A DNA stretch of 64,000 nt from a phage. The stretch is taken from assembly GCA_012411765.1 (NCBI GenBank), contig GCA_012411765.1_3031.1; one strand, written 5' to 3'. The notes beneath the pieces were generated by a model. The model did not search any database and was not told the origin of the DNA. It saw only the letters and a program-made list of their open reading frames with translations. Of the stretch, positions 5,815 to 60,515 are shown one piece after another (within the stretch, counting starts at the first letter, position 1; each line of letters begins with the position of its first letter). Position numbers and translations under genes: made by a program.

Positions 5815-7380
5815 ATGACTATCAAAACTAAAGCTGAACTTTTGAACAAATGGAAGCCATTACTGGAAGGTGAAGGTTTACCGGAAATTGCTAATAGCAA
5901 ACAAGCGATTATCGCTAAAATCTTTGAAAACCAGGAAAAAGATTTCCAGACAGCTCCGGAATATAAAGACGAAAAAATTGCTCAGGCATTCGGTTCTTTC
6001 TTAACAGAAGCTGAAATCGGTGGTGACCACGGTTACAATGCTACCAACATCGCTGCAGGTCAGACTTCTGGCGCAGTAACTCAGATTGGCCCAGCTGTTA
6101 TGGGTATGGTACGTCGTGCTATTCCTAACCTGATTGCTTTCGATATTTGTGGTGTTCAGCCGATGAACAGCCCGACTGGCCAGGTATTCGCACTGCGCGC
6201 AGTATATGGTAAAGACCCAATCGCTTCCGGCGCTAAAGAAGCATTCCACCCAATGTATGGTCCAGATGCAATGTTCTCTGGTCAGGGTGCTGCTAAGAAA
6301 TTCCCAGCTCTGGCTGCTAGCACGCAAACTACAGTAGGTGATATCTATACTCACTTCTTCCAGGACACTGGTACTGTGTATCTGCAAGCTTCTGCTCAAG
6401 TAACAATTAGTTCTACTGCAGATGATGCAGCTAAATTAGATGCTGAAATTAAGAAACAAATGGAAGCTGGTGTACTGGTAGAAATCGCAGAAGGTATGGC
6501 TACTTCTATCGCTGAACTTCAGGAAGGTTTCAACGGTTCTACCGATAACCCATGGAATGAAATGGGCTTCCGTATCGATAAACAAGTTATCGAAGCTAAA
6601 TCTCGCCAGCTGAAAGCTGCTTACTCTATCGAATTAGCACAAGACCTCCGCGCTGTTCACGGTATGGATGCTGATGCTGAACTGTCTGGTATTCTGGCTA
6701 CAGAAATTATGCTGGAAATCAACCGTGAAGTTGTTGATTGGATTAACTACTCAGCTCAGGTTGGTAAATCTGGTATGACCCTGACTCCGGGTTCTAAAGC
6801 TGGTGTATTTGACTTCCAGGACCCAATCGATATTCGTGGTGCTCGCTGGGCGGGTGAATCCTTTAAAGCTCTGTTGTTCCAGATTGACAAAGAAGCAGTT
6901 GAAATTGCTCGTCAGACCGGTCGTGGTGAAGGTAACTTCATTATCGCTTCCCGTAACGTAGTTAACGTTCTGGCTTCAGTTGATACCGGCATTTCTTATG
7001 CTGCACAGGGTCTGGCTACCGGCTTTAACACTGATACTACCAAGTCAGTATTTGCTGGTGTTCTGGGTGGTAAATACCGCGTATATATCGACCAGTATGC
7101 TAAACAGGATTATTTCACTGTAGGTTATAAAGGTCCGAACGAAATGGATGCTGGTATTTACTATGCTCCATATGTAGCTCTGACTCCGCTGCGTGGTTCT
7201 GATCCGAAGAACTTCCAACCGGTAATGGGATTCAAAACTCGTTACGGTATCGGTATCAACCCATTTGCAGAATCCGCTGCTCAGGCTCCGGCTTCTCGCA
7301 TCCAGAGCGGTATGCCTTCTATTCTGAACAGCCTTGGTAAAAACGCTTACTTCCGCCGTGTATATGTTAAAGGTATCTAA
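5815..7380 (+). CDS. 23: Major capsid protein gp23 (521 aa)
   Basis: N-terminus MTIKTKAELLNKWKPLLEGEGLPEIANSK and length 521 aa match T4 gp23. Confidence 0.98.
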   Translation: MTIKTKAELLNKWKPLLEGEGLPEIANSKQAIIAKIFENQEKDFQTAPEYKDEKIAQAFGSFLTEAEIGGDHGYNATNIAAGQTSGAVTQIGPAVMGMVRRAIPNLIAFDICGVQPMNSPTGQVFALRAVYGKDPIASGAKEAFHPMYGPDAMFSGQGAAKKFPALAASTQTTVGDIYTHFFQDTGTVYLQASAQVTISSTADDAAKLDAEIKKQMEAGVLVEIAEGMATSIAELQEGFNGSTDNPWNEMGFRIDKQVIEAKSRQLKAAYSIELAQDLRAVHGMDADAELSGILATEIMLEINREVVDWINYSAQVGKSGMTLTPGSKAGVFDFQDPIDIRGARWAGESFKALLFQIDKEAVEIARQTGRGEGNFIIASRNVVNVLASVDTGISYAAQGLATGFNTDTTKSVFAGVLGGKYRVYIDQYAKQDYFTVGYKGPNEMDAGIYYAPYVALTPLRGSDPKNFQPVMGFKTRYGIGINPFAESAAQAPASRIQSGMPSILNSLGKNAYFRRVYVKGI

Positions 7381-7394
7381 TCTTTGACGATTTA

Positions 7395-7418
7395 AGGGAC
7401 CTTCGGGTCCCTTTAGTT
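7395..7418 (+). terminator. Intrinsic terminator after gene 23
   Basis: AGGGACC-TTCG-GGTCCCT followed by T-rich run. Confidence 0.7.
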
Positions 7419-7428
7419 GTTTTTATGG

Positions 7429-7436
7429 TATAAATA
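7429..7436 (+). promoter_or_regulatory. Late promoter TATAAATA for gene 24
   Basis: Exact octamer about 28 nt upstream of gp24 ATG. Confidence 0.6.
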
Positions 7437-7463
7437 AATCATATAAACCAAAAGGAAAGCGCA

Positions 7464-8747
7464 ATGGCTAAAATCAACGAACTTCTGCGCGAATCAACCA
7501 CAACGAATAGCAACTCAATCGGTCGCCCAAATCTCGTTGCTTTGACTCGCGCTACCACTAAATTAATATATTCTGACATTGTAGCAACGCAAAGAACTAA
7601 TCAACCTGTTGCTGCTTTTTATGGTATCAAATACCTTAACCCAGATAACGAATTTACATTTAAAACTGGTGCTACTTACGCTGGCGAAGCTGGATATGTA
7701 GACCGAGAACAAATCACAGAATTAACAGAAGAGTCTAAATTAACTCTCAATAAAGGCGATTTATTCAAATATAATAATATCGTTTATAAAGTATTAGAAG
7801 ATACACCATTTGCTGATATTGAAGAAAGCGATTTAGAATTAGCTCTTCAGATTGCAATTGTTCTTTTAAAGGTTCGTCTATTTTCTGACGCAGCGTCAAC
7901 AAGCAAATTTGAAAGCTCTGATAGCGAAATTGCGGATGCTAGATTCCAGATTAATAAATGGCAAACCGCAGTTAAATCTCGTAAACTTAAAACTGGTATC
8001 ACAGTTGAATTAGCACAAGATTTAGAAGCAAATGGATTCGATGCTCCTAATTTCTTGGAAGATTTGCTTGCAACTGAAATGGCAGATGAAATCAATAAAG
8101 ATATTCTACAGTCTTTGATTACAGTGTCAAAACGCTATAAAGTTACAGGAATTACTGATAGTGGATTCATCGATTTGAGTTATGCATCTGCTCCTGAAGC
8201 TGGTCGTTCATTATACCGAATGGTATGTGAAATGGTTTCGCATATCCAAAAAGAATCAACTTATACAGCAACGTTCTGTGTAGCTTCTGCTCGTGCTGCT
8301 GCTATTCTTGCTGCTTCAGGTTGGTTAAAACATAAACCAGAAGATGACAAATATCTTTCACAAAATGCCTATGGGTTCTTAGCTAATGGTTTACCGCTTT
8401 ATTGCGATACCAACAGCCCATTAGATTATGTAATCGTTGGCGTAGTAGAAAATATCGGTGAAAAAGAAATTGTTGGTTCAATTTTCTATGCTCCGTATAC
8501 AGAAGGTCTTGACTTAGATGACCCTGAACATGTGGGTGCATTTAAAGTTGTTGTTGATCCAGAAAGCTTACAACCGTCTATCGGTTTATTAGTTAGATAT
8601 GCTTTATCAGCAAATCCTTATACTGTAGCAAAAGATGAAAAAGAAGCAAGAATAATTGACGGTGGAGACATGGATAAAATGGCGGGTCGTTCAGATTTGT
8701 CTGTTTTATTAGGTGTTAAATTACCAAAAATTATTATTGATGAATAA
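7464..8747 (+). CDS. 24: Capsid vertex protein gp24 (427 aa)
   Basis: 427 aa, gp23 paralog immediately downstream, late promoter upstream. Confidence 0.95.
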   Translation: MAKINELLRESTTTNSNSIGRPNLVALTRATTKLIYSDIVATQRTNQPVAAFYGIKYLNPDNEFTFKTGATYAGEAGYVDREQITELTEESKLTLNKGDLFKYNNIVYKVLEDTPFADIEESDLELALQIAIVLLKVRLFSDAASTSKFESSDSEIADARFQINKWQTAVKSRKLKTGITVELAQDLEANGFDAPNFLEDLLATEMADEINKDILQSLITVSKRYKVTGITDSGFIDLSYASAPEAGRSLYRMVCEMVSHIQKESTYTATFCVASARAAAILAASGWLKHKPEDDKYLSQNAYGFLANGLPLYCDTNSPLDYVIVGVVENIGEKEIVGSIFYAPYTEGLDLDDPEHVGAFKVVVDPESLQPSIGLLVRYALSANPYTVAKDEKEARIIDGGDMDKMAGRSDLSVLLGVKLPKIIIDE

Positions 8748-22558: not shown

Positions 22559-22562
22559 CAAT

Positions 22563-22586
22563 GGGGACCTTTCGGTCCCCATATTT
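22563..22586. terminator. Bidirectional intrinsic terminator hairpin between gp54 (+) and the downstream minus-strand ORF
   Basis: GGGGACC-TTTC-GGTCCCC followed by T-run. Confidence 0.65.
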
Positions 22587-22877
22587 TTATTTACGGAATG
22601 AAATGAAAGCAGAAACTGAAGCAACTAAACTGTCTTCAATATAAACTTCAATTTTTACCGGAGCTTCTGACTCGAATTTACCTGTTACTACACCTTGGAA
22701 AATACTTTCAGTTTGTTCTGGCTTTGAAAAATTTTCAGAAGGAAAAATTCCGAACTTTTTATCTGTTCCAAAAATTTTGATAAATTCATCATAAACTGCT
22801 TCATTAAAAGCATTATCAGCAGGAATAACGCCTTCAACTACAAGTTCTTGACCCAAAAAGCGCAAAGAAGATTTCAT
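22587..22877 (-). CDS. Hypothetical protein (96 aa) downstream of alt paralogs
   Basis: ATG-start ORF with its own early promoter. Confidence 0.55.
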   Translation of the reverse strand: MKSSLRFLGQELVVEGVIPADNAFNEAVYDEFIKIFGTDKKFGIFPSENFSKPEQTESIFQGVVTGKFESEAPVKIEVYIEDSLVASVSAFISFRK

Positions 22878-22884
22878 TTTGTGT

Positions 22885-22938
22885 TCCTCATGTTATGTCA
22901 GTAAGTCTACTATAACACAACACGAGGGACTTGTAAAC
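22885..22938 (-). repeat. 54-bp dispersed repeat (promoter-containing), copy 1; copy 2 at 38207-38260
   Basis: tcctcatgttatgtcagtaagtctactataacacaacacgagg(g/a)acttgtaaac present at both loci with one mismatch. Confidence 0.8.
22909..22938 (-). promoter_or_regulatory. Early promoter (GTTTACA-N17-TATAGT), part of a 54-bp repeat shared with the alc promoter
   Basis: Minus-sense GTTTACAagtccctcgtgttgtgtTATAGT upstream of 22877 ATG. Confidence 0.6.
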
Positions 22939-24995
22939 TACATCTTGAACTTTTTAGACATTCCGTTGATGTTAACCAAAGAAGCCAAGATTTGAGAAAC
23001 TTCGTTTTCCTCTTCTTTTGATTCTTCTACAAGGAATTGATTAAATCCAGCCATTGGACGAACTTCACCAGTTTCCATTAAATGGTCGCCATCATATATT
23101 GATTCTTCTAATTGTTCAGAAGGAGGAACGATTGTACCTTCGATTAGATACTTGTTATAAGCAGTTTCTTTCATAAAGTACGTACTTACTTTATTAATCT
23201 TCAGTAAAATTCCACGCGGTAGAATAACTTCAGCTTCTGATGGAAATCCTGATAAATGACCTGGAACGATAACTTTGATTCGCTCAGCTCCTTTAATTAC
23301 CATACCCACGCTAGTTTCAGCATCTTCATTGGCATATGTAGAATGACTACCCATATGCATTAAATCTTCTGCATCAACGGAACCTTCTCCTTCGTCAGAA
23401 AATACTGCGCCGGAATCATCTAGAGCCATATAGTTTTTACCATGCTCACCGAAGATATTTGGTTTAAGTGATGTCGATACGAAGTTCTTGAAATAGAACA
23501 TTTTGTTTTCAATGTTATGACGCAAAGTTTTAAAGGTAACTTCTTGTCCACGGTAAAGTGTAGTTCCTGGAGGAAGAACTGATCCTTTGGCAAAGGCAGA
23601 ATCTAACGTCTCGATGTGCTTAATAGCTCTTTCCATGTATTCTTCACGGGTAGAATCTGGTTTACCCAAAAGGAACGAGTTCATTTCAACATATGAATCT
23701 GCACAATAATCTTCAATTACATCAGATTCAGCCTGAGTCAGTCCTTTTGGAGTTACTTCGGTGCTTGCGTATTCATATGCCTGAGCAGCAGATTCATTAA
23801 TCAATTTATAAATGCCATTCATTACAAATTGAATAATAGCTGTCTTTTCATCTGATGTAGCTTTAGAACCTTTAACTAAATCATTGATAATTTTCTTAAT
23901 AACATCAAAGCTATTAGAAATATTAATGTCAGCAAGATCGCTTAAAATTTTATCAGTTTTATAATCAAAGAATTCTTTATTCTTTAAATATTCTTGAGAA
24001 CCTTGATATGTTATATCGCTCTGCAGCTTGATAGATGGATCGCGTAAACGTGCATGGGCTAATGCAATATGATTTCGGAAACTTTCTAGTTCATAATCAT
24101 TAGATTTAAAACGAGAAGCACTTCTCATACCACCGATAGCTCCTTTGCTGAAGTTTGAACCAATCTGGATAACGCCAGAGTTCATTGGTCCTTCTGCTTT
24201 ATATACCGGAACTTTAGATTCAAACTCTTGATATTTCTTGGCAGCGAAGCTATCGCCCTGAAGTGAAGCATCAACAGTAGAATATTGAGCTTGTGCTGCT
24301 AATCGACGACTAATTTTAGTTTTCTGAATAACAGCTTGATCAGTGCGCTTATCATTTTCTAAAGCAATAGAAGCAGCAACAGCGACAGCTTTAGGAACAG
24401 CATTACCTGTTTTAACGTCTACATAAACATCACCAACCTTTGATTCAACTTTTGTGAATAACTCAGTTGAAATAGGAGGTACACCTGGAATGTCTTCTAA
24501 ATTGGCATTTTTACGGTAAACCATAATATATGCATATTTTTTATCATAGTCCCAGATTTCCTTTAAAAGAACATATCGACCTGCTCCCTTAGTACGTACT
24601 AAACGGTCAGCAATAACTTGCATTTGACGAGCTGCGCCATTTGTTTTACTCTTTAGTACGCGGAATAGGCATGCGTCGATTTTATACTGTTTCATTGTTT
24701 GAAGAGCAGTATCAAAAACGGCATTAATGACACCAATTGGATTTCCACCCAAGTTTTTAAGCTTAACTAATGATAGTTTCTCATTGACACCTATCATTAC
24801 AATATGCATCATTTTATCGCCTGGCTTAACGTTTTTATTTGTATCACCACCAGAGGTGTATGTACAAAATCTAAATCCAGGAAGCACGCTTTCTTCACCG
24901 GCTTGGATAGCAAAAATTTGTGGTATTTTATGCTTAGGATTTAAGTTAACAACCGGCGCCGAAGCGCCGTCAAATAATTCTGTAATAAGTTCCAT
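22938..24995 (-). CDS. Alt-family ADP-ribosyltransferase paralog (685 aa) with N-terminal capsid-targeting sequence
   Basis: N-term MELITELFD; C-terminal R/S-T-S/E-x-E motifs (YRG, FVSTSL, EAEVILPRG). Confidence 0.85.
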   Translation of the reverse strand: MELITELFDGASAPVVNLNPKHKIPQIFAIQAGEESVLPGFRFCTYTSGGDTNKNVKPGDKMMHIVMIGVNEKLSLVKLKNLGGNPIGVINAVFDTALQTMKQYKIDACLFRVLKSKTNGAARQMQVIADRLVRTKGAGRYVLLKEIWDYDKKYAYIMVYRKNANLEDIPGVPPISTELFTKVESKVGDVYVDVKTGNAVPKAVAVAASIALENDKRTDQAVIQKTKISRRLAAQAQYSTVDASLQGDSFAAKKYQEFESKVPVYKAEGPMNSGVIQIGSNFSKGAIGGMRSASRFKSNDYELESFRNHIALAHARLRDPSIKLQSDITYQGSQEYLKNKEFFDYKTDKILSDLADINISNSFDVIKKIINDLVKGSKATSDEKTAIIQFVMNGIYKLINESAAQAYEYASTEVTPKGLTQAESDVIEDYCADSYVEMNSFLLGKPDSTREEYMERAIKHIETLDSAFAKGSVLPPGTTLYRGQEVTFKTLRHNIENKMFYFKNFVSTSLKPNIFGEHGKNYMALDDSGAVFSDEGEGSVDAEDLMHMGSHSTYANEDAETSVGMVIKGAERIKVIVPGHLSGFPSEAEVILPRGILLKINKVSTYFMKETAYNKYLIEGTIVPPSEQLEESIYDGDHLMETGEVRPMAGFNQFLVEESKEEENEVSQILASLVNINGMSKKFKM

Positions 24996-24998
24996 GAT

Positions 24999-27086
24999 TT
25001 ATCCTTGAACGAACTTGTAAGGCATGTTTGTAATATCTATGCAAGACGCAATAATTCCAAGAGATGATTCTACTTTCTGTTTAACATTTGATGAAACAAA
25101 TGATGCAAAGTCAACTCTATCTTCTATATCACCTGTCATTGTAACCAATTCACCAGTTTCCATTAAATGGTCTCCGTCATAGATTACCGATTCGGTGAGT
25201 TCTTCTGTGGTCATAACTTCAGCTTGAATGAGTTTTGTATTATTAGATGTTGTTCCGTCATTATTAGAAGCATCAGTTATTTTATTAACTTTGACCATCA
25301 ATCCGCGCGGTAGAATAACTTCAGCTTCTGTTGCTATTCCGAGACTTCCTGGATATACAACATTAACTTTATGAGCTCCATCAATTGCCCATCCTATTTG
25401 AACTTTAACGTATTCAGGATTTTCTTTATACGCTCTTATTTCGTTTGGATTAATAATTATTCCTTCTTCATTTTTATCAACTGTTAATTCATTGCGAGCT
25501 TCTGGTTCTAAAAGACCAATACCAGCATGTGTGATTCCAAAACGTCCAAAAATGATAGGAGTTAAAGAAGTAGATACAAAATTTCTGAAGTAGAACACTT
25601 TATTTTTAACTAACGCTTCATATATAGGAGCAGTCATACTTTGAGCACGATAAACTGTAATGCCTTCTGGTATACGGTCACCATTTTCAAAAGCTGAATC
25701 TAAGTTATTTATAGCAGATTCAATTTCTTTTTCACTCATTACATCATATCGTTCTGGATTGTAACGACCTAAAAGAAGATTATTGATGTCAGTATATCCT
25801 GAACCGCAATATTCTCTAATGCCACGCTTTTGTGATGGAGTATATTTAGAACCATCACGGGCAATAGTAATATCAATCATTGGACCAGCACCAATTCCAG
25901 AAAAACTGTAAATCATTCGTTTGAGGAATTTAGTTTTTGCTGCGTTCCAGGAATTTTTAGTTATTTCTTCCCAGACTTCATCTGGTTGTCCTTTACGATT
26001 TTTATTATGATTAGCAAGCCATTTATCTTTATAATCTTCAAAGAATTGATTTACAGCTGCTGCGTATTTCTCTAAACATTTTATTGAAGTAGTTGGTTCA
26101 TTTTTAATTGCATTAAAAATTACTTCTTTAATTTTTTCTGAAACTTCACCGACTTGACTCATTGGAAAGAATTTATAATCATAGTGAAGTTCATCTGCCG
26201 TTCCTTCAGCAATAATTTTTGCTGCCTTTGTTTTAGAAGCTAATGAATTAATTCCAATTTTCATTTCTTCTGCTTCGGGAATTAAAGGTGCAGTAGCTGG
26301 TTTATTGAAATTAGCTGCGGTAGATTCATACTTCTGGAATAATTCACTTTCAAATCTAGAAGATTCCAATGATTGACTTTGCGCAATTGCTCTACGGGAA
26401 ATTTTAACTTTAACGATTACAGCTTGGTCAGAACGTTTATCATTTTCTTGTGCAATAGATGCTGCAATTGCCTCATTTTTAGTTACTTGGGCTCCAGTAT
26501 CTTTATTGATATAAACATCGCCGACTTTCGATTCAACTTTAGTAAAGAGCTCGGTACTAATTTCCGGAACTCCTGGAATGTCTTCTAGTGATACATTTTT
26601 GCGATGTATAAGAATATATGCATACTTTTTATCATAATCCCAGAGTTCCTTAAGAAGGACGTATCTGCCACCTGAACGACTACGGATAAGTCTATCAGCA
26701 ATAACTTGAATTTGTCGAGCTTGACCTGCGGTTTTAGACTTAAGAATACGAAGCATACAAGCATCAATTTTATACTGACGCATAGTTTGCATTGCAACAG
26801 TAAAAACTGAATTGATATAATTAATTGGGCTTGGACCAAGACCTTTTAATTTAGCAATTGAACCTTTAGCAGTTAATGTAAAAGGAACAATATGCATCAT
26901 TTTATCGCCCATCTTTAAATCGCGATTAGTATCACCTCCAGATGTATAGGTACATAAACGAAAGCCTGGTTGTTCAATTGCATCATCAACATGAACTGAA
27001 AAAATTTGTGGTATTTTCTTCTTTGGGTTTAAGTTTGTAATCGGAAGAGTAGTATCTTCGTCAAATAATTCTGTAATGAGTTCCAT
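24999..27086 (-). CDS. alt: Alt ADP-ribosyltransferase (695 aa from second ATG; track ORF begins MM at 27089)
   Basis: N-term MELITELFDEDTTLPIT; R-S-E motifs (YRA, FVSTSL, EAEVILPRG); late promoter upstream. Confidence 0.85.
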   Translation of the reverse strand: MELITELFDEDTTLPITNLNPKKKIPQIFSVHVDDAIEQPGFRLCTYTSGGDTNRDLKMGDKMMHIVPFTLTAKGSIAKLKGLGPSPINYINSVFTVAMQTMRQYKIDACMLRILKSKTAGQARQIQVIADRLIRSRSGGRYVLLKELWDYDKKYAYILIHRKNVSLEDIPGVPEISTELFTKVESKVGDVYINKDTGAQVTKNEAIAASIAQENDKRSDQAVIVKVKISRRAIAQSQSLESSRFESELFQKYESTAANFNKPATAPLIPEAEEMKIGINSLASKTKAAKIIAEGTADELHYDYKFFPMSQVGEVSEKIKEVIFNAIKNEPTTSIKCLEKYAAAVNQFFEDYKDKWLANHNKNRKGQPDEVWEEITKNSWNAAKTKFLKRMIYSFSGIGAGPMIDITIARDGSKYTPSQKRGIREYCGSGYTDINNLLLGRYNPERYDVMSEKEIESAINNLDSAFENGDRIPEGITVYRAQSMTAPIYEALVKNKVFYFRNFVSTSLTPIIFGRFGITHAGIGLLEPEARNELTVDKNEEGIIINPNEIRAYKENPEYVKVQIGWAIDGAHKVNVVYPGSLGIATEAEVILPRGLMVKVNKITDASNNDGTTSNNTKLIQAEVMTTEELTESVIYDGDHLMETGELVTMTGDIEDRVDFASFVSSNVKQKVESSLGIIASCIDITNMPYKFVQG

Positions 27087-27109
27087 CATATCCTCTCTAG
27101 TGTTTATTC

Positions 27110-27117: not shown

Positions 27118-27138
27118 AAATTAAAGGCCCGAAGGCCT

Positions 27139-27327
27139 TTAGTAATCTAGTGGTAAGAGAGTACGATATATTTCAAACTTTGGTCCTTTTTCATAAGCAT
27201 CAAAAGTTTCTGTGAATTTATTATAAGCATATGCATCTATAAATTCAATCATGATTTGTGATACAGAAGTAGAAACATCTCCACCTTCTTTTTGAGCCAC
27301 GACAATTGTTTCTAAGTAAGCTTTCAT
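27139..27327 (-). CDS. Hypothetical small protein (62 aa) between gp30 and alt
   Basis: ATG start overlapping ligase stop (ATGA). Confidence 0.5.
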   Translation of the reverse strand: MKAYLETIVVAQKEGGDVSTSVSQIMIEFIDAYAYNKFTETFDAYEKGPKFEIYRTLLPLDY

Positions 27328-56723: not shown

Positions 56724-59700
56724 ATGGCTACTTTAAAACAAATACAATTTAAAAGAAGCAAAACCGCAGGTGCACGTCCTGCTGCTTCAGTATTAGCCGA
56801 AGGTGAATTGGCTATAAACTTAAAAGATAGAACAATTTTTACTAAAGATGATTCAGGAAATATCATTGATTTAAGCATTTCCGCTGGCGGTAATATCAGT
56901 GGAAATGTAACTATTGATGGAACTTTACGCGTCAATGGACCAATAAACAATTTTGGAAATTTTTCCACAAGTGGCCAGATTACCGCTGGTAGTAGTATTT
57001 CAGCTCAAGTTTTTAGAGCATTGCAAGGTTCGTTTTATACAAGAGCATCAAATGATGTCTCAAATGCCCATTTATGGTTTGAAAATGCCGATGGCACTGA
57101 ACGAGGCGTTATATATGCTCGTCCTCAAACTACAACTAACGGTGAAATACGCCTTAGGGTTAGACAAGGATCAGGAAGCACCATTAATAGCGAATTCTAT
57201 TTCCGTTCTATAAACGGCGGTGAATTTCAAGCCAATCGTATTTTAGCATCAGATTCGTTAGTAACAAAACGCATTGCAGCTGATACAGTTATTCACGGTG
57301 GCAAAGCCTTTGGTGTATATGATACGGATTCATTAGTTAACTACGTATACCCAGGCACCGGTGAAACTAACGGAGTAAACTATCTTCGTAAAGTTCGCGC
57401 TAAATCAGGCGGTACCATATGGCATGAGCTTTGTACTGCTCAATCAGGCCAAGCTGATGAAATGTCTTGGTGGACCGGTTCTACTCCTATTTCAAAACAA
57501 TTTGGTATTCGTAATGACGGTCGGATGATTGTCCGCAATAGTCTTGCATTAGGCACTATGACTACTGATTTTCCATCGAGCGATTATGGTAATGGTGGCG
57601 CATTAGGATTCGGTGCTTATTTGGCTCTAGGTGATAACGGGACTGGTTTACGCTATCAAAAAACCGGTGTTTATGATTTAGTTGGTTCCGGATTGTCTGT
57701 TGCATCTATTACTCCAGATAGTTTCCGTAGTACTCGCAAAGGTTTATTTGGACGTTCAGAAGACCAAGGCACCACATGGATTATGCCTGGAACGAACGCT
57801 GCATTTTTATCAGTTCAAACACAGGCTGATGAAAACACTGCTGGAGACGGCCAGACGCATATTGGCTATAACTCAGGCGGAAAAATGAACCACTATTTCC
57901 GTGGTAAAGGCAAAACTAATATTAATACTCAGGAAGGTATGGAAGTTAATCCGGGTATTTTGAAATTGGTAACTGGCTCTAATAATGTAATGTTTTATGC
58001 TGATGGCGGTATTACATCTGTTAAGCAGCTTTCAATATATAATGGCATATATTTAGCAGCTAATAATTCTACTGCTGGGCTAACATTCGCTCCAACTACT
58101 ACAATTGATGGTACTAAGCAAATTTTGTGGGAAGGCGGTACTCGTGCTGGGCAGAATAAAAGCTATGTAACTGTTAAAGCGTGGGGTAATTCATTTAACG
58201 CATCTGGCGATCGTAATCGTGAAACGGTTTTTGAAGTAGCTGACGGACAAGGTTATTATTTTTATTCCCAACGCGTAGCCCCAAGCGGCTCAGAAACTAC
58301 TGGTCCTGTTGTAACCCAGTTCAATGGACAAGTTAATGCTAGAGGAAGTATTATTACTGACGGAAGTTTTAAAGTTAATGGATTAAGCACTTTAGTCGGT
58401 AATGTTACTATGTCTAACGGTTTGTTTGTCCAAGGTGGTTCTTCTATTACTGGACAAGTTAAAATCGGCGGAACTGTTGATGCATTAAGAATTTGGAATG
58501 CTGAATACGGTGCTATTTTCCGCCGTTCAGAAGCATCATTACATATTATCCCGACTCCTAAAGATGCTGGTGAAAGTGGTGGAATAAGTAATCTCCGCCC
58601 GTTAAGTATTAGTCTTAATAATGGTATGGTACAAATGCGTCATTCTGTCACGTTAGGTGATGATGGTGCAGGCGGTAATATGATTACTGTGGACAACGAT
58701 AACAAACGTGTTGTTGTTGCTAGTAATAGTCGTATTGCTCCTAATTTCAGAATGCAATTAGGGCAATCATCTTATATTGATGTAGAATGTACTGATGCTG
58801 CTCGCCCAGCCGGTGCAGGTTCATTTGCATCCCAGAATGACGCAAACGTAAGAGCTCCAATTTATATGAATATAGAGCGTACTGCTGCTTCTGAATATAT
58901 TCCAATTGTTAAACAGCGGTATGTAAATGGTGATAGTACTTATTCTATTGGCACCTTAATTTCTCAAGGAGACTTTCGCGTTCATTATCACCAGGGTACT
59001 AGTACTACCGGTACTGATTTAAGCTGGGAATTCCGTCGCAATGGTGATTTCCGCGCGGCAGGTAAAATTATTGCCGGTGCTGCTACTTTTGGCACTGATG
59101 GTAATATTACTGGTGGTTCAGGAAACTTTGCCAACTTAAACAGCACAATTGAATCACTTAAAACTGATATTGTTTCAAGTTATCCTATTGGGGCTCCTAT
59201 TCCATGGCCAACGGATACTCCTCCTGACGGTTACGCTATTATGGAAGGCCAGACCTTTGATAAGTCTGCGTATCCAAAGCTAGCTGTTGCATATCCTAGT
59301 GGCGTTATTCCGGATATGCGCGGGCAAACTATTAAAGGTAAACCGAGTGGTCGTAATGTATTAAGCGCGGAAGCTGATGGTATTAAGTCTCATACCCATG
59401 GAGCATCTGCATCCAATACAGATTTAGGTACTAAAACTACATCAAGCTTTGATTATGGCACTAAGACCTCTTCAAGTTTTGACTATGGTACTAAAACCAG
59501 TAATACCACAGGTAACCACTCTCATACTGTAAGCGGTACTACGAGTTCTGCTGGTGCACACCAACATGCGCGCTCAGGTCCTCAGTTACAAGCCGGCATA
59601 CCCAATAACATATTCTATGACGGATATAATACTGTAGGTGCAAACGCCAACGCTAAAATCACCGGATCTGTGAGCGGTGCTACTGCAGGGTCAAATATAG

Positions 59701-59936
59701 CCAAAACTTCTTCAGACGGTGCTCATACTCATACTTGGTCTGGTACTACAAGCACTACAGGTAACCATGCTCACACAGTAGGTATTGGTGCTCATACCCA
59801 TACTGTAGGTATCGGTGCTCATACCCACACGGTAGCAATTGGCTCGCATGGTCATACTATCACTGTAAATAGTACAGGTAATACAGAAAACACGGTTAAA
59901 AACATCGCTTTTAACTATATCGTTCGTTTAGCATAA
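56724..59936 (+). CDS. 37: Long tail fibre distal subunit gp37 (receptor-binding, 1070 aa) with His-x-His repeats near C-terminus
   Basis: C-terminus ...[15 protein letters not shown] and GxHxH repeats as in T4 gp37. Confidence 0.95.
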
Positions 59937-59940
59937 GGAG

Positions 59941-59956
59941 AGGGGCTTCGGCCCCT
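59941..59956 (+). terminator. Hairpin after gene 37
   Basis: AGGGGC-TTCG-GCCCCT. Confidence 0.5.
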
Positions 59957-59963
59957 TCTGAAC

Positions 59964-60515
59964 ATGAAAATTTATCATTATTATTTTGACACTAAAGAAT
60001 TTTATAAAGAAGAAAATTATAAACCAATTAAAGGATTAGGTCTTCCTGCACATTCAACAACTAAAAAACCTTTAGAACCTAAAGAAGGATATGCGGTTGT
60101 ATTTGATGAAAGAATTCAAGATTGGATTTATGAAGAAGACCATCGCGGTAAACGAGCCTGGACTTTTAATAAAGAAGAAATTTTAATAGGCGAAATAGGA
60201 AGTTTAGTAGGTGTAACTTTTGATGAGCCCGGCGAATTTGATATATGGACTGATGACGGTTGGAAAGAAGACGAAACATATAAGCGAGTTTTAATTCGTA
60301 ATAGAAAAATTGAAGAATTATATAAAGAGTTCCAAGTTTTAAATAATATGATTGAAGCTTCTGTCGCGAATAAAAAGGAAAAATTCTATTATAAAAACCT
60401 TAAGCGGTTCTTTGCTCTTTTAGAAAAGCATGAGCATTTAGGTGGTGAATTTCCTAAATGGCCTGAAAAAGAACAGAAGCCTTGGTATAAGCGTTTATTC
60501 AAGCATTACGTATAA
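59964..60515 (+). CDS. 38: gp38, T4-type tail fibre assembly chaperone (183 aa)
   Basis: 183 aa MKIYHYYFDTKEFYKEENYKPIKGLGLPAHS; not the longer T2-type adhesin. Confidence 0.9.
   Translation: MKIYHYYFDTKEFYKEENYKPIKGLGLPAHSTTKKPLEPKEGYAVVFDERIQDWIYEEDHRGKRAWTFNKEEILIGEIGSLVGVTFDEPGEFDIWTDDGWKEDETYKRVLIRNRKIEELYKEFQVLNNMIEASVANKKEKFYYKNLKRFFALLEKHEHLGGEFPKWPEKEQKPWYKRLFKHYV

Follow-up and report, generated by a model that had tools for sequence, protein, structure and literature searches.

Nearly everything known about the ADP-ribosyltransferases (ARTs) that phages inject into their hosts comes from T4 and its one enzyme, Alt, whereas phage T2, about three quarters of the sequenced Tequatrovirus records, and the DNA analyzed here encode two. 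This DNA is a stretch of 64,000 nucleotides from a phage (NCBI GenBank assembly GCA_012411765.1, contig GCA_012411765.1_3031.1; hereafter the window), and on its minus strand 2 long Alt-type genes lie in tandem: AltA, the ortholog of T4 alt, followed by a second gene, AltB. We read the pair as a late-transcribed, two-gene cassette for 2 Alt-family mono-ADP-ribosyltransferases that would both be packaged in the phage head, processed by the prohead protease gp21 and injected, and we give this reading a probability of roughly 0.8.

The window is part of a Tequatrovirus (T4-like) genome. Genes 29, 48, and 54 on the plus strand are followed on the minus strand by alt.-3, the 2 long open reading frames (ORFs), alt.1, the DNA ligase gene (30), 30.1, and 30.2, and this order is that of T4, with the alt pair between 30/alt.1 and alt.-3/gene 54. 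The nearest records in the phage collection are about 97–98% identical to the window, and none represents the same phage.

The tandem Alt pair is real and was already known. Paralogous alt duplications have been described in T4-like phages (RB49, 44RR, and, as alt.-1 and alt.-2, in T4), and are full-length in 44RR (Nolan et al. 2006; PMC1524935). A 2026 paper reports 2 paralogous Alt-like proteins with 43% identity in 6phi13 and SHFML-11, and suggests that they have diverged in function (PMC13600099). Annotation also reflects the pair: both genes carry the name "Alt-like RNA polymerase ADP-ribosyltransferase" in numerous RefSeq entries, the RB68 annotation labels the second Alt gene alt.-2, and a Pfam family exists for the N-terminal domain (PF26846). 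Added here are a candidate C-terminal gp21 site in AltB, measurements of selection, the exact lesions of the T4 locus, and a recombinant, single-gene state in PST-like phages.

Two intact Alt-family genes in tandem

A sequence-only reading of the window had proposed 2 adjacent minus-strand Alt-type ORFs, and its coordinates agree exactly with ours, which give 685 and 695/696 residues. ORF1 is AltB and ORF2 is AltA. Read from its first ATG (27089), ORF2 spans 24999..27089 and encodes 696 residues, while the second ATG (27086) gives a protein of 695 residues with the start annotated in T4, MELITE. Numbering below follows that start, and the parts of the 2 genes are as follows.

24999..27086, minus strand: AltA (ORF2), T4 alt ortholog with a T2-type central and catalytic allele; 695 residues plus stop
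26379..27086, minus strand: AltA N-terminal domain, residues 1–236; basic, with an isoelectric point (pI) of 9.5; includes the propeptide MELITE
27069..27077, minus strand: AltA gp21 site ITE-6, the T4 cleavage site (PMC5694885)
25191..25856, minus strand: AltA ART domain, residues 411–632, ending at the gp21 motif LTE-632
25647..25649, 25566..25574, and 25320..25328, minus strand: AltA catalytic codons R480, S505-T-S507, and E587-A-E589, respectively
25191..25199, minus strand: AltA gp21 motif LTE-632
25002..25190, minus strand: predicted AltA C-terminal propeptide, residues 633–695; 98.5% identity to the stretch of 63 residues cut off T4 Alt by gp21
24993..25010, minus strand: AltA/AltB junction CAAGGATAAATCATG, made of the alt stop TAA, 3 nt, and the AltB ATG
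22938..24995, minus strand: AltB (ORF1), full-length second Alt paralog; 685 residues plus stop; its T4 counterpart consists only of the remnants alt.-1 and alt.-2
24291..24995, minus strand: AltB N-terminal domain, residues 1–235; basic (pI 9.7); includes the propeptide MELITE
24978..24986, minus strand: AltB gp21 site ITE-6
23751..24290, minus strand: AltB middle region, residues 236–415; all-helical in the secondary structure of the model, and 19% identical to that of AltA
23103..23750, minus strand: AltB ART domain, residues 416–631, ending at the gp21-type motif LEE-631
23550..23552, 23469..23477, and 23229..23237, minus strand: AltB catalytic codons R482, S507-T-S509, and E587-A-E589, respectively
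23103..23111, minus strand: AltB gp21-type motif LEE-631
22941..23102, minus strand: predicted AltB C-terminal propeptide, residues 632–685; acidic, beginning with the invariant SIYDGDHLMETGE block

The 2 proteins are 42% identical across their full length (BLASTP, E = 5e-164), a resemblance beyond chance. Each consists of the 6-residue propeptide MELITE, a basic N-terminal domain of about 230 residues, a helical middle, and an ART domain with a C-terminal propeptide of 54–63 residues; the N-terminal domains are basic (pI 9.5–9.7) as opposed to an acidic catalytic domain (about 4.9). As had been noticed from the letters alone, both begin with the same 9 residues, MELITELFD. The accompanying claim that the first ~240 residues are near-identical was overstated, however: this part is well conserved only, the proteins sharing 161 of 241 columns (66.8% identity), and the first 800 nt of DNA are 62.7% identical with a longest common run of 23 nt. 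The divergence described for the middle is real, residues 241–415 being only 19% identical between the ORFs, and identity rises to 32% in the ART domain and 38% in the C-terminal tail.

The assignment of both ORFs to the Alt type was right, as both are full-length members of this family. Over their full lengths, both match phrog_802 ("Alt-like RNA polymerase ADP-ribosyltransferase"; E = 1e-257 and 2e-274); both also match Pfam PF03496 (E = 4e-20 and 1e-37), and precomputed matches to PF26846 (Tevenvirinae_ADPRT) and PF03496 exist for proteins 89–99% identical to AltB. The family-specific N-terminal domain of about 235 residues is found in each, with 99.6% (ORF2) and 67% (ORF1) identity to that of T4 Alt. 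Neither protein has a match in NCBIfam, and our Pfam scan, made with a copy that lacks PF26846, returned none in the N-terminal domain or the middle, even with the E-value limit relaxed to 10.

Each ORF had been said to keep a full set of catalytic motifs, and this is what we find. ORF1 contains LYRGQ (R482), FVSTSL (S507-T-S509), and SEAEVILPRG (E587/E589); ORF2 contains VYRAQ (R480), FVSTSL (S505-T-S507), and TEAEVILPRG (E587/E589). A disrupted catalytic residue in one copy, looked for by careful alignment, is present in neither. Specifically, in an alignment of 22 family sequences spanning 42–95% identity, the catalytic Arg, both Ser of S-T-S, both Glu of E-x-E, and the ILPRG that follows are all invariant. 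The ExE motif is the arginine-specific signature of R-S-E ARTs, and its presence in both copies fits a predicted specificity for arginine. In T4, the substitution E577A makes Alt catalytically dead (PMC11404850). Counted from MELITE, the motif of T4 Alt is E574-M-E576, and the one-residue offset fits numbering from an upstream in-frame ATG; we therefore infer that E577 would be the second Glu of ExE, i.e. E589 in both window proteins.

Evidence on the fold points the same way. A search of PDB sequences with ORF1 gave nothing at E = 0.01 or better, and a profile of the family reached only C3-like and iota-like ARTs in that database. In profile and pairwise alignments, the Alt Arg aligns with the YR of iota-like and C3-like toxins, and ExE with their E/Q-x-E. 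The predicted structures of both proteins match solved R-S-E ARTs; we know of no solved structure of Alt itself.

Head association and late expression

T4 Alt belongs to the prohead core and numbers about 40 copies per head (PMC5694885, PMC9026906). It is trimmed by gp21 at both ends, after ITE-6 and after LTE-619, the latter cut removing 63 C-terminal residues at a site found by mass spectrometry (PMC5694885). Both window proteins keep the N-terminal site ITE-6, and at the sequence level the aligned C-terminal site reads LTE-632 in AltA and LEE-631 in AltB. Across the 22-sequence alignment E6 and E631 are invariant, and an invariant IYDGDxxxETGE block stands right after E631. The structural models fit this arrangement, as their only long segments of low confidence are the termini, namely residues 1–11 in both proteins, 629–685 in ORF1, and 651–695 in ORF2, the C-terminal segments having a predicted local distance difference test (pLDDT) score below 50; both termini are predicted to be disordered. 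The proposal that AltA and AltB are packaged and trimmed is strengthened by the kept C-terminal site.

The N-terminal domain is restricted to this family. A phmmer search returned only 69 homologs among 1.84 billion cluster representatives, nearly all of them 600–712 residues long. We considered whether the domain is also fused to other types of effectors, and this was not found: the homologs of atypical length with a Pfam match carry PF03496, which scores above the cutoff in 7 of the 10 scanned and as a fragment only in 1 of the 10. Separately, 2 distant homologs of the domain, P0183 (485 residues, E = 3e-8) and P0184 (541 residues, E = 8e-7), have a remainder with no Pfam match, and may represent fusions to a partner that is not a recognizable ART.

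The N-terminal domain most likely ties the protein to the prohead core, and its restricted occurrence, its basic pI, and the gp21 sites would all agree with such a role in head association. Among the T4 internal proteins IPI–IPIII, a capsid targeting sequence (CTS) was defined for IPIII, whose 10 N-terminal residues have been found by experiment to direct packaging (PMC9026906). The propeptide of Alt, 6 residues long, is assumed by analogy to act in targeting (PMC5694885). More tentatively, the alpha/beta domain shared by AltA and AltB may have a GNAT-like fold and functions beyond anchoring in the head. Overall, the case for packaging and injection of AltB is good, although the evidence is indirect.

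An alternative is that AltB is made late and not injected, i.e. that it acts in the producing cell or is mainly structural in the prohead core, with its enzyme activity secondary. Packaging is read from motifs only, and T4 Alt has been described both as an enzyme and as a part of the core (PMC9026906, PMC11404850), two points which speak for this possibility. Both gp21 sites and the whole N-terminal domain are nevertheless conserved with AltA, and purifying selection keeps the catalytic residues invariant, a sign that enzyme activity matters. We therefore regard a non-injected AltB as improbable.

Two signals upstream of AltA bear on how the injected pair we propose would be expressed.

27122..27141, minus strand: terminator-like, G+C-rich hairpin followed by a T-run, between alt.1 and alt; an annotated terminator in Yersinia phage fPS-65
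27110..27117, minus strand: T4-type (gp55-type) late promoter box TATAAATA, 31 nt upstream of the AltA MELITE ATG

The hairpin would end the transcripts of the upstream genes 30 and alt.1. The late box stands at −31 in 6 of the 8 related loci checked and at −36 in T4, and L004, a metagenomic contig whose lineage is more distant, also has it upstream of its A copy. Between the AltA stop and the AltB start lie 3 nt, and the last AltA codons contain an AAGGA Shine-Dalgarno sequence; this junction is conserved in T2, fPS-65, SHFML-11, RB68, Killian, the T4 remnant, and the divergent L004. As AltB has no separate promoter, it would be read from the same late mRNA as AltA. Our confidence is high that AltA and AltB are both working enzymes of the Alt family and are made late.

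We also considered whether AltB has a late promoter inside ORF2. A second TATAAATA lies within ORF2 (25706..25713, minus strand), 718 nt upstream of the AltB ATG, and it was rejected as such a promoter given its lack of conservation: the window, T2, and RB68 have it, and Killian and every carrier of the T4-type allele lack it. Its presence in AltA is probably incidental. Over the whole window, TATAAATA occurs 19 times compared with 8.8 expected, a count that no shuffle reached, and an excess of this kind is expected for a region of T4-type late genes.

The resulting mechanism can be laid out as a series of steps. Both genes would be transcribed from the single late promoter TATAAATA, with AltB translated by coupling from the same mRNA, and both precursors would enter the prohead core. 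There, gp21 would trim both ends, and the mature proteins, with predicted masses of about 70.1 kDa for AltA (residues 7–632) and 69.2 kDa for AltB (residues 7–631), would co-migrate on a gel. Both would be ejected with the DNA and, ahead of all phage gene expression, would modify arginines of host proteins by ADP-ribosylation with NAD+ of the host. The action of AltA would resemble that of T4 Alt, with RNA polymerase alpha Arg265 as its main target. The packaging, cleavage, injection, and activity of AltB, and the divergence of its targets, we infer from the features of its sequence.

Maintenance, loss and recombination of AltB

The distal 1.3 kb of AltB are present in 402 phage records at 93.9–99.7% identity, and a tblastn search with AltB residues 236–685 gives the same count (402) at 95% identity or more. 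Both genes are intact and in the same arrangement in, e.g. T2, RB68, Killian, fPS-65, and SHFML-11. Among 6 Tequatrovirus orthologs of AltB, the pairwise ratio of nonsynonymous to synonymous substitution rates (dN/dS) ranges from 0.027 to 0.052; for example, the window and Killian differ at 82 synonymous and 16 nonsynonymous positions. None of the AltB copies examined has an internal stop codon. AltB is under strong purifying selection.

L004 carries a divergent tandem pair, in which AltB is 74% and AltA about 63% identical to the window proteins. Across genomes, the N-terminal domains group by type rather than by genome, with identities of 88.5% (A-A), 92.8% (B-B), and 64–68% (A-B), which indicates that the duplication predates the split from the L004 lineage. 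Concerted evolution, or gene conversion, was considered as the source of the similarity between the 2 N-terminal domains, and was rejected on account of this grouping by type across lineages. As such, the extra similarity of this domain reflects stronger constraint and not homogenization. Outside the core Tequatrovirus, fDHCT2 (with a gene labeled "alt_3") and QL01 (3 places in the record) appear to have 3 Alt paralogs, and the QL01/JS10-type Alt is about 47–50% identical to AltB and nearer to it than to AltA.

The first gene, AltA, is the ortholog of T4 alt. Its identity to T4 Alt is 99.6% over residues 1–240 and 98.5% over the last 60 residues, but drops to 33% in the middle and to 61% in the ART domain. 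AltA is a mosaic, with ends about 99% T4-like and a different allele in its center (window 25230..26360; 33–61% identity). The center found in the window is common to T2, RB10, and RB33, and at a coverage of at least 80% the T2-type center is found in 336 phage records vs 175 for the T4-type, these being the 2 main alleles of the genus. Further AltA alleles exist in Tequatrovirus, e.g. the WG01 type, with about 81–84% DNA identity. Within an allele class, AltA has a dN/dS of 0.03–0.10. AltB adjoins either allele, the T4-type in fPS-65 and SHFML-11 and the T2-type in the window, T2, RB68, and Killian.

T4 shows how the second gene can be lost. The T4 reference has 2 short remnants of it directly after the alt stop, alt.-1 (61 residues, NP_049810) and alt.-2 (67 residues, NP_049809), which its GenBank note calls "an old duplication of the first part of gene alt." These are 89–90% identical in protein and 96% in DNA to the first ~116 codons of AltB (T4 remnant segment, L001 5034..5451). 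Two lesions account for them. A 1-nt deletion in an A-run (window ~24836) splits the frame, and codons ~117–682 were lost in a deletion of 1,699 bp between direct repeats of 9 bp, CTAAAGAGT (24656..24648) and CTAAAAAGT (22957..22949); the size of this deletion follows from the distance between the ATG and the ATG of alt.-3, which is 2118 nt in the window vs 418 nt in T4. The remnant is no more diverged than the surrounding genome, which indicates that the full-length gene was lost recently. On this comparison, alt.-1 and alt.-2 are best described as remnants of a recent deletion of a full-length gene and not as an old partial duplication, and the GenBank note is misleading.

Several points weigh against our reading of the pair. 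T4, with remnants only, indicates that AltB is dispensable in some lineages. Escherichia phage sutha has a full AltA and a 38-residue 3' remnant of AltB left by a 5' deletion (L011 5012..5128), which is still named "Alt-like RNA polymerase ADP-ribosyltransferase" in RefSeq-style annotation. Yersinia phage PST and 2 metagenomic phages have a single A/B hybrid gene, again an instance of AltB being dispensable. In addition, AltB lacks a promoter of its own, and its level of expression thus hinges on read-through and translational coupling. We found no virion proteomics, activity assay or mutant for AltB in the searchable literature, and the proposed divergence of its targets is argued from sequence divergence only.

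The hybrids (PST, L008 2353..4413; L003 5001..7055; and L005 5001..7061) consist of an AltA-type 5' part and an AltB-type remainder, joined by single, clean crossovers within the N-terminal domain near nt 300, 550, and 155, respectively. An assembly artifact was considered for the hybrid proteins P0003–P0006, and was rejected because PST, which was cultured and fully sequenced, has the same clean-crossover hybrid, and because A and B share at most 23 identical nucleotides in a row. These genes are deletions by unequal recombination between the tandem paralogs, with the repeated N-terminal domains as substrate. Either effector half can be lost, and it follows that neither is essential.

Such losses could mean that AltB is a duplicate in decay, without a function of its own and heading for the pseudogene state seen in T4. 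In favor of this, the gene was lost independently in T4, through a frameshift and a deletion of 1.7 kb, in sutha, through a 5' deletion, and in the phages with a hybrid gene. However, dN/dS is 0.03–0.05, all full-length copies examined have an intact frame, about 400 records retain the gene at 94% identity or more, and the 96% DNA identity of the T4 remnant indicates a recent loss, not the general state. On this evidence, decay is disfavored and highly improbable.

The main rival is that AltB is redundant with AltA, i.e. packaged, active, and directed at the same targets (RNA polymerase alpha Arg265 and minor ones), with the pair raising dosage or robustness. The hybrids and T4 give this some weight: T4 grows well with AltA alone, and PST, L003, and L005 hold a single hybrid with the N-terminus of AltA and the middle and catalytic parts of AltB, which implies that either effector half can be the sole one. 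Both copies also have the ExE signature of arginine specificity. Against this, the effector parts are only 19% (middle) and 32% (ART domain) identical, and each is near-constant in Tequatrovirus (dN/dS 0.03–0.10); AltB combines freely with 2 AltA alleles; and the long maintenance of 2 divergent copies in about 400 genomes is not expected from pure redundancy. On balance, we consider redundancy rather unlikely.

Within our reading of 2 injected enzymes, this leaves the question of what AltB acts on. The middle region and the surface of the catalytic domain differ strongly between the paralogs, which suggests that AltB probably has a different or wider set of targets; judged from these differences, a target set distinct from that of AltA is plausible only. 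A stronger version, in which AltB is a second injected effector with host targets of its own, e.g. a component of defense or translation and not RNA polymerase alpha, is possible, and we advance it tentatively.

Should AltB be packaged and act on targets of its own, a second enzyme would have to be included in models of immediate-early host takeover and in the interpretation of alt mutants in phages other than T4. The picture of one injected ADP-ribosyltransferase would then be an accident of recent gene loss in T4, and AltB would partly explain why T4 and T2-like phages differ in how they take over the host early on or in how sensitive they are to its defenses. For annotation, it follows from the hybrids that the single "alt" of phages such as PST is an A/B recombinant.

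Neighboring features and comparison with known systems

Downstream of AltB, the co-oriented block ends with one more gene, and the following features were identified there.

22587..22877, minus strand: alt.-3 homolog, 96 residues, Pfam DUF5498; last gene of the co-oriented block
22909..22937, minus strand: sigma-70-like promoter (TTTACA, 17 nt, TATAGT, with an upstream TG) between the AltB stop and alt.-3
22561..22582, both strands: bidirectional terminator-like hairpin between alt.-3 and the convergent gene 54; fPS-65 has a terminator on both strands

The fPS-65 record has a predicted early promoter annotated at the same place as the sigma-70-like promoter of the window, and alt.-3 may thus have early expression as well, separate from the late alt transcript. 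No tRNA genes or Rfam families were found in scans covering the entire window. Its G+C content is 0.43 at 6001–8000 and 0.42 at 58001–60000, vs about 0.35 elsewhere.

Among known systems, the closest to AltB is the second Alt-like gene of T2, RB68, SHFML-11, fPS-65, 6phi13, and about 400 Tequatrovirus records. This is the same gene, 94–99.7% identical and in the same tandem, and the AltB of the window differs from that of its relatives by a few percent, mostly at synonymous sites.

T4 Alt (NP_049811, 682 residues) is a head-packaged NAD+:arginine ADP-ribosyltransferase. Both window proteins resemble it in architecture, N-terminal domain, catalytic motifs, gp21 motifs, late promoter, and genomic position, although AltB is only 42–43% identical to it overall and 10–35% in the effector part. 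T4 Alt acts on Arg265 of RNA polymerase alpha and on minor targets (PMC2988021), and is non-essential (PMC9026906).

ModA and ModB are R-S-E ARTs of the same phage lineage as Alt. They are small, of about 200 residues, and have neither the N-terminal domain nor the propeptides. ModA also acts on RNA polymerase alpha Arg265 and is an early product after infection, as is ModB (PMC2988021); unlike Alt, neither is injected from the head (PMC5512222).

Finally, the toxins C3, VIP2, iota, CDTa, and Vis share with the window proteins the R / S-T-S / (E or Q)-x-E ART fold, although their sequence identity to the phage proteins is only 14–24%. The duplicated, ART-like N-terminal adaptor of binary toxins has no counterpart in the first 415 residues of either window protein, where the models contain an alpha/beta domain and a helical region. 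These toxins are delivered through a binary-toxin pore or by secretion, whereas delivery via the phage head is what we propose here, and the phage proteins add a family-specific N-terminal domain and gp21-type propeptides. As such, AltA and AltB have a toxin-like catalytic domain, yet are not toxins of the binary or secreted type.

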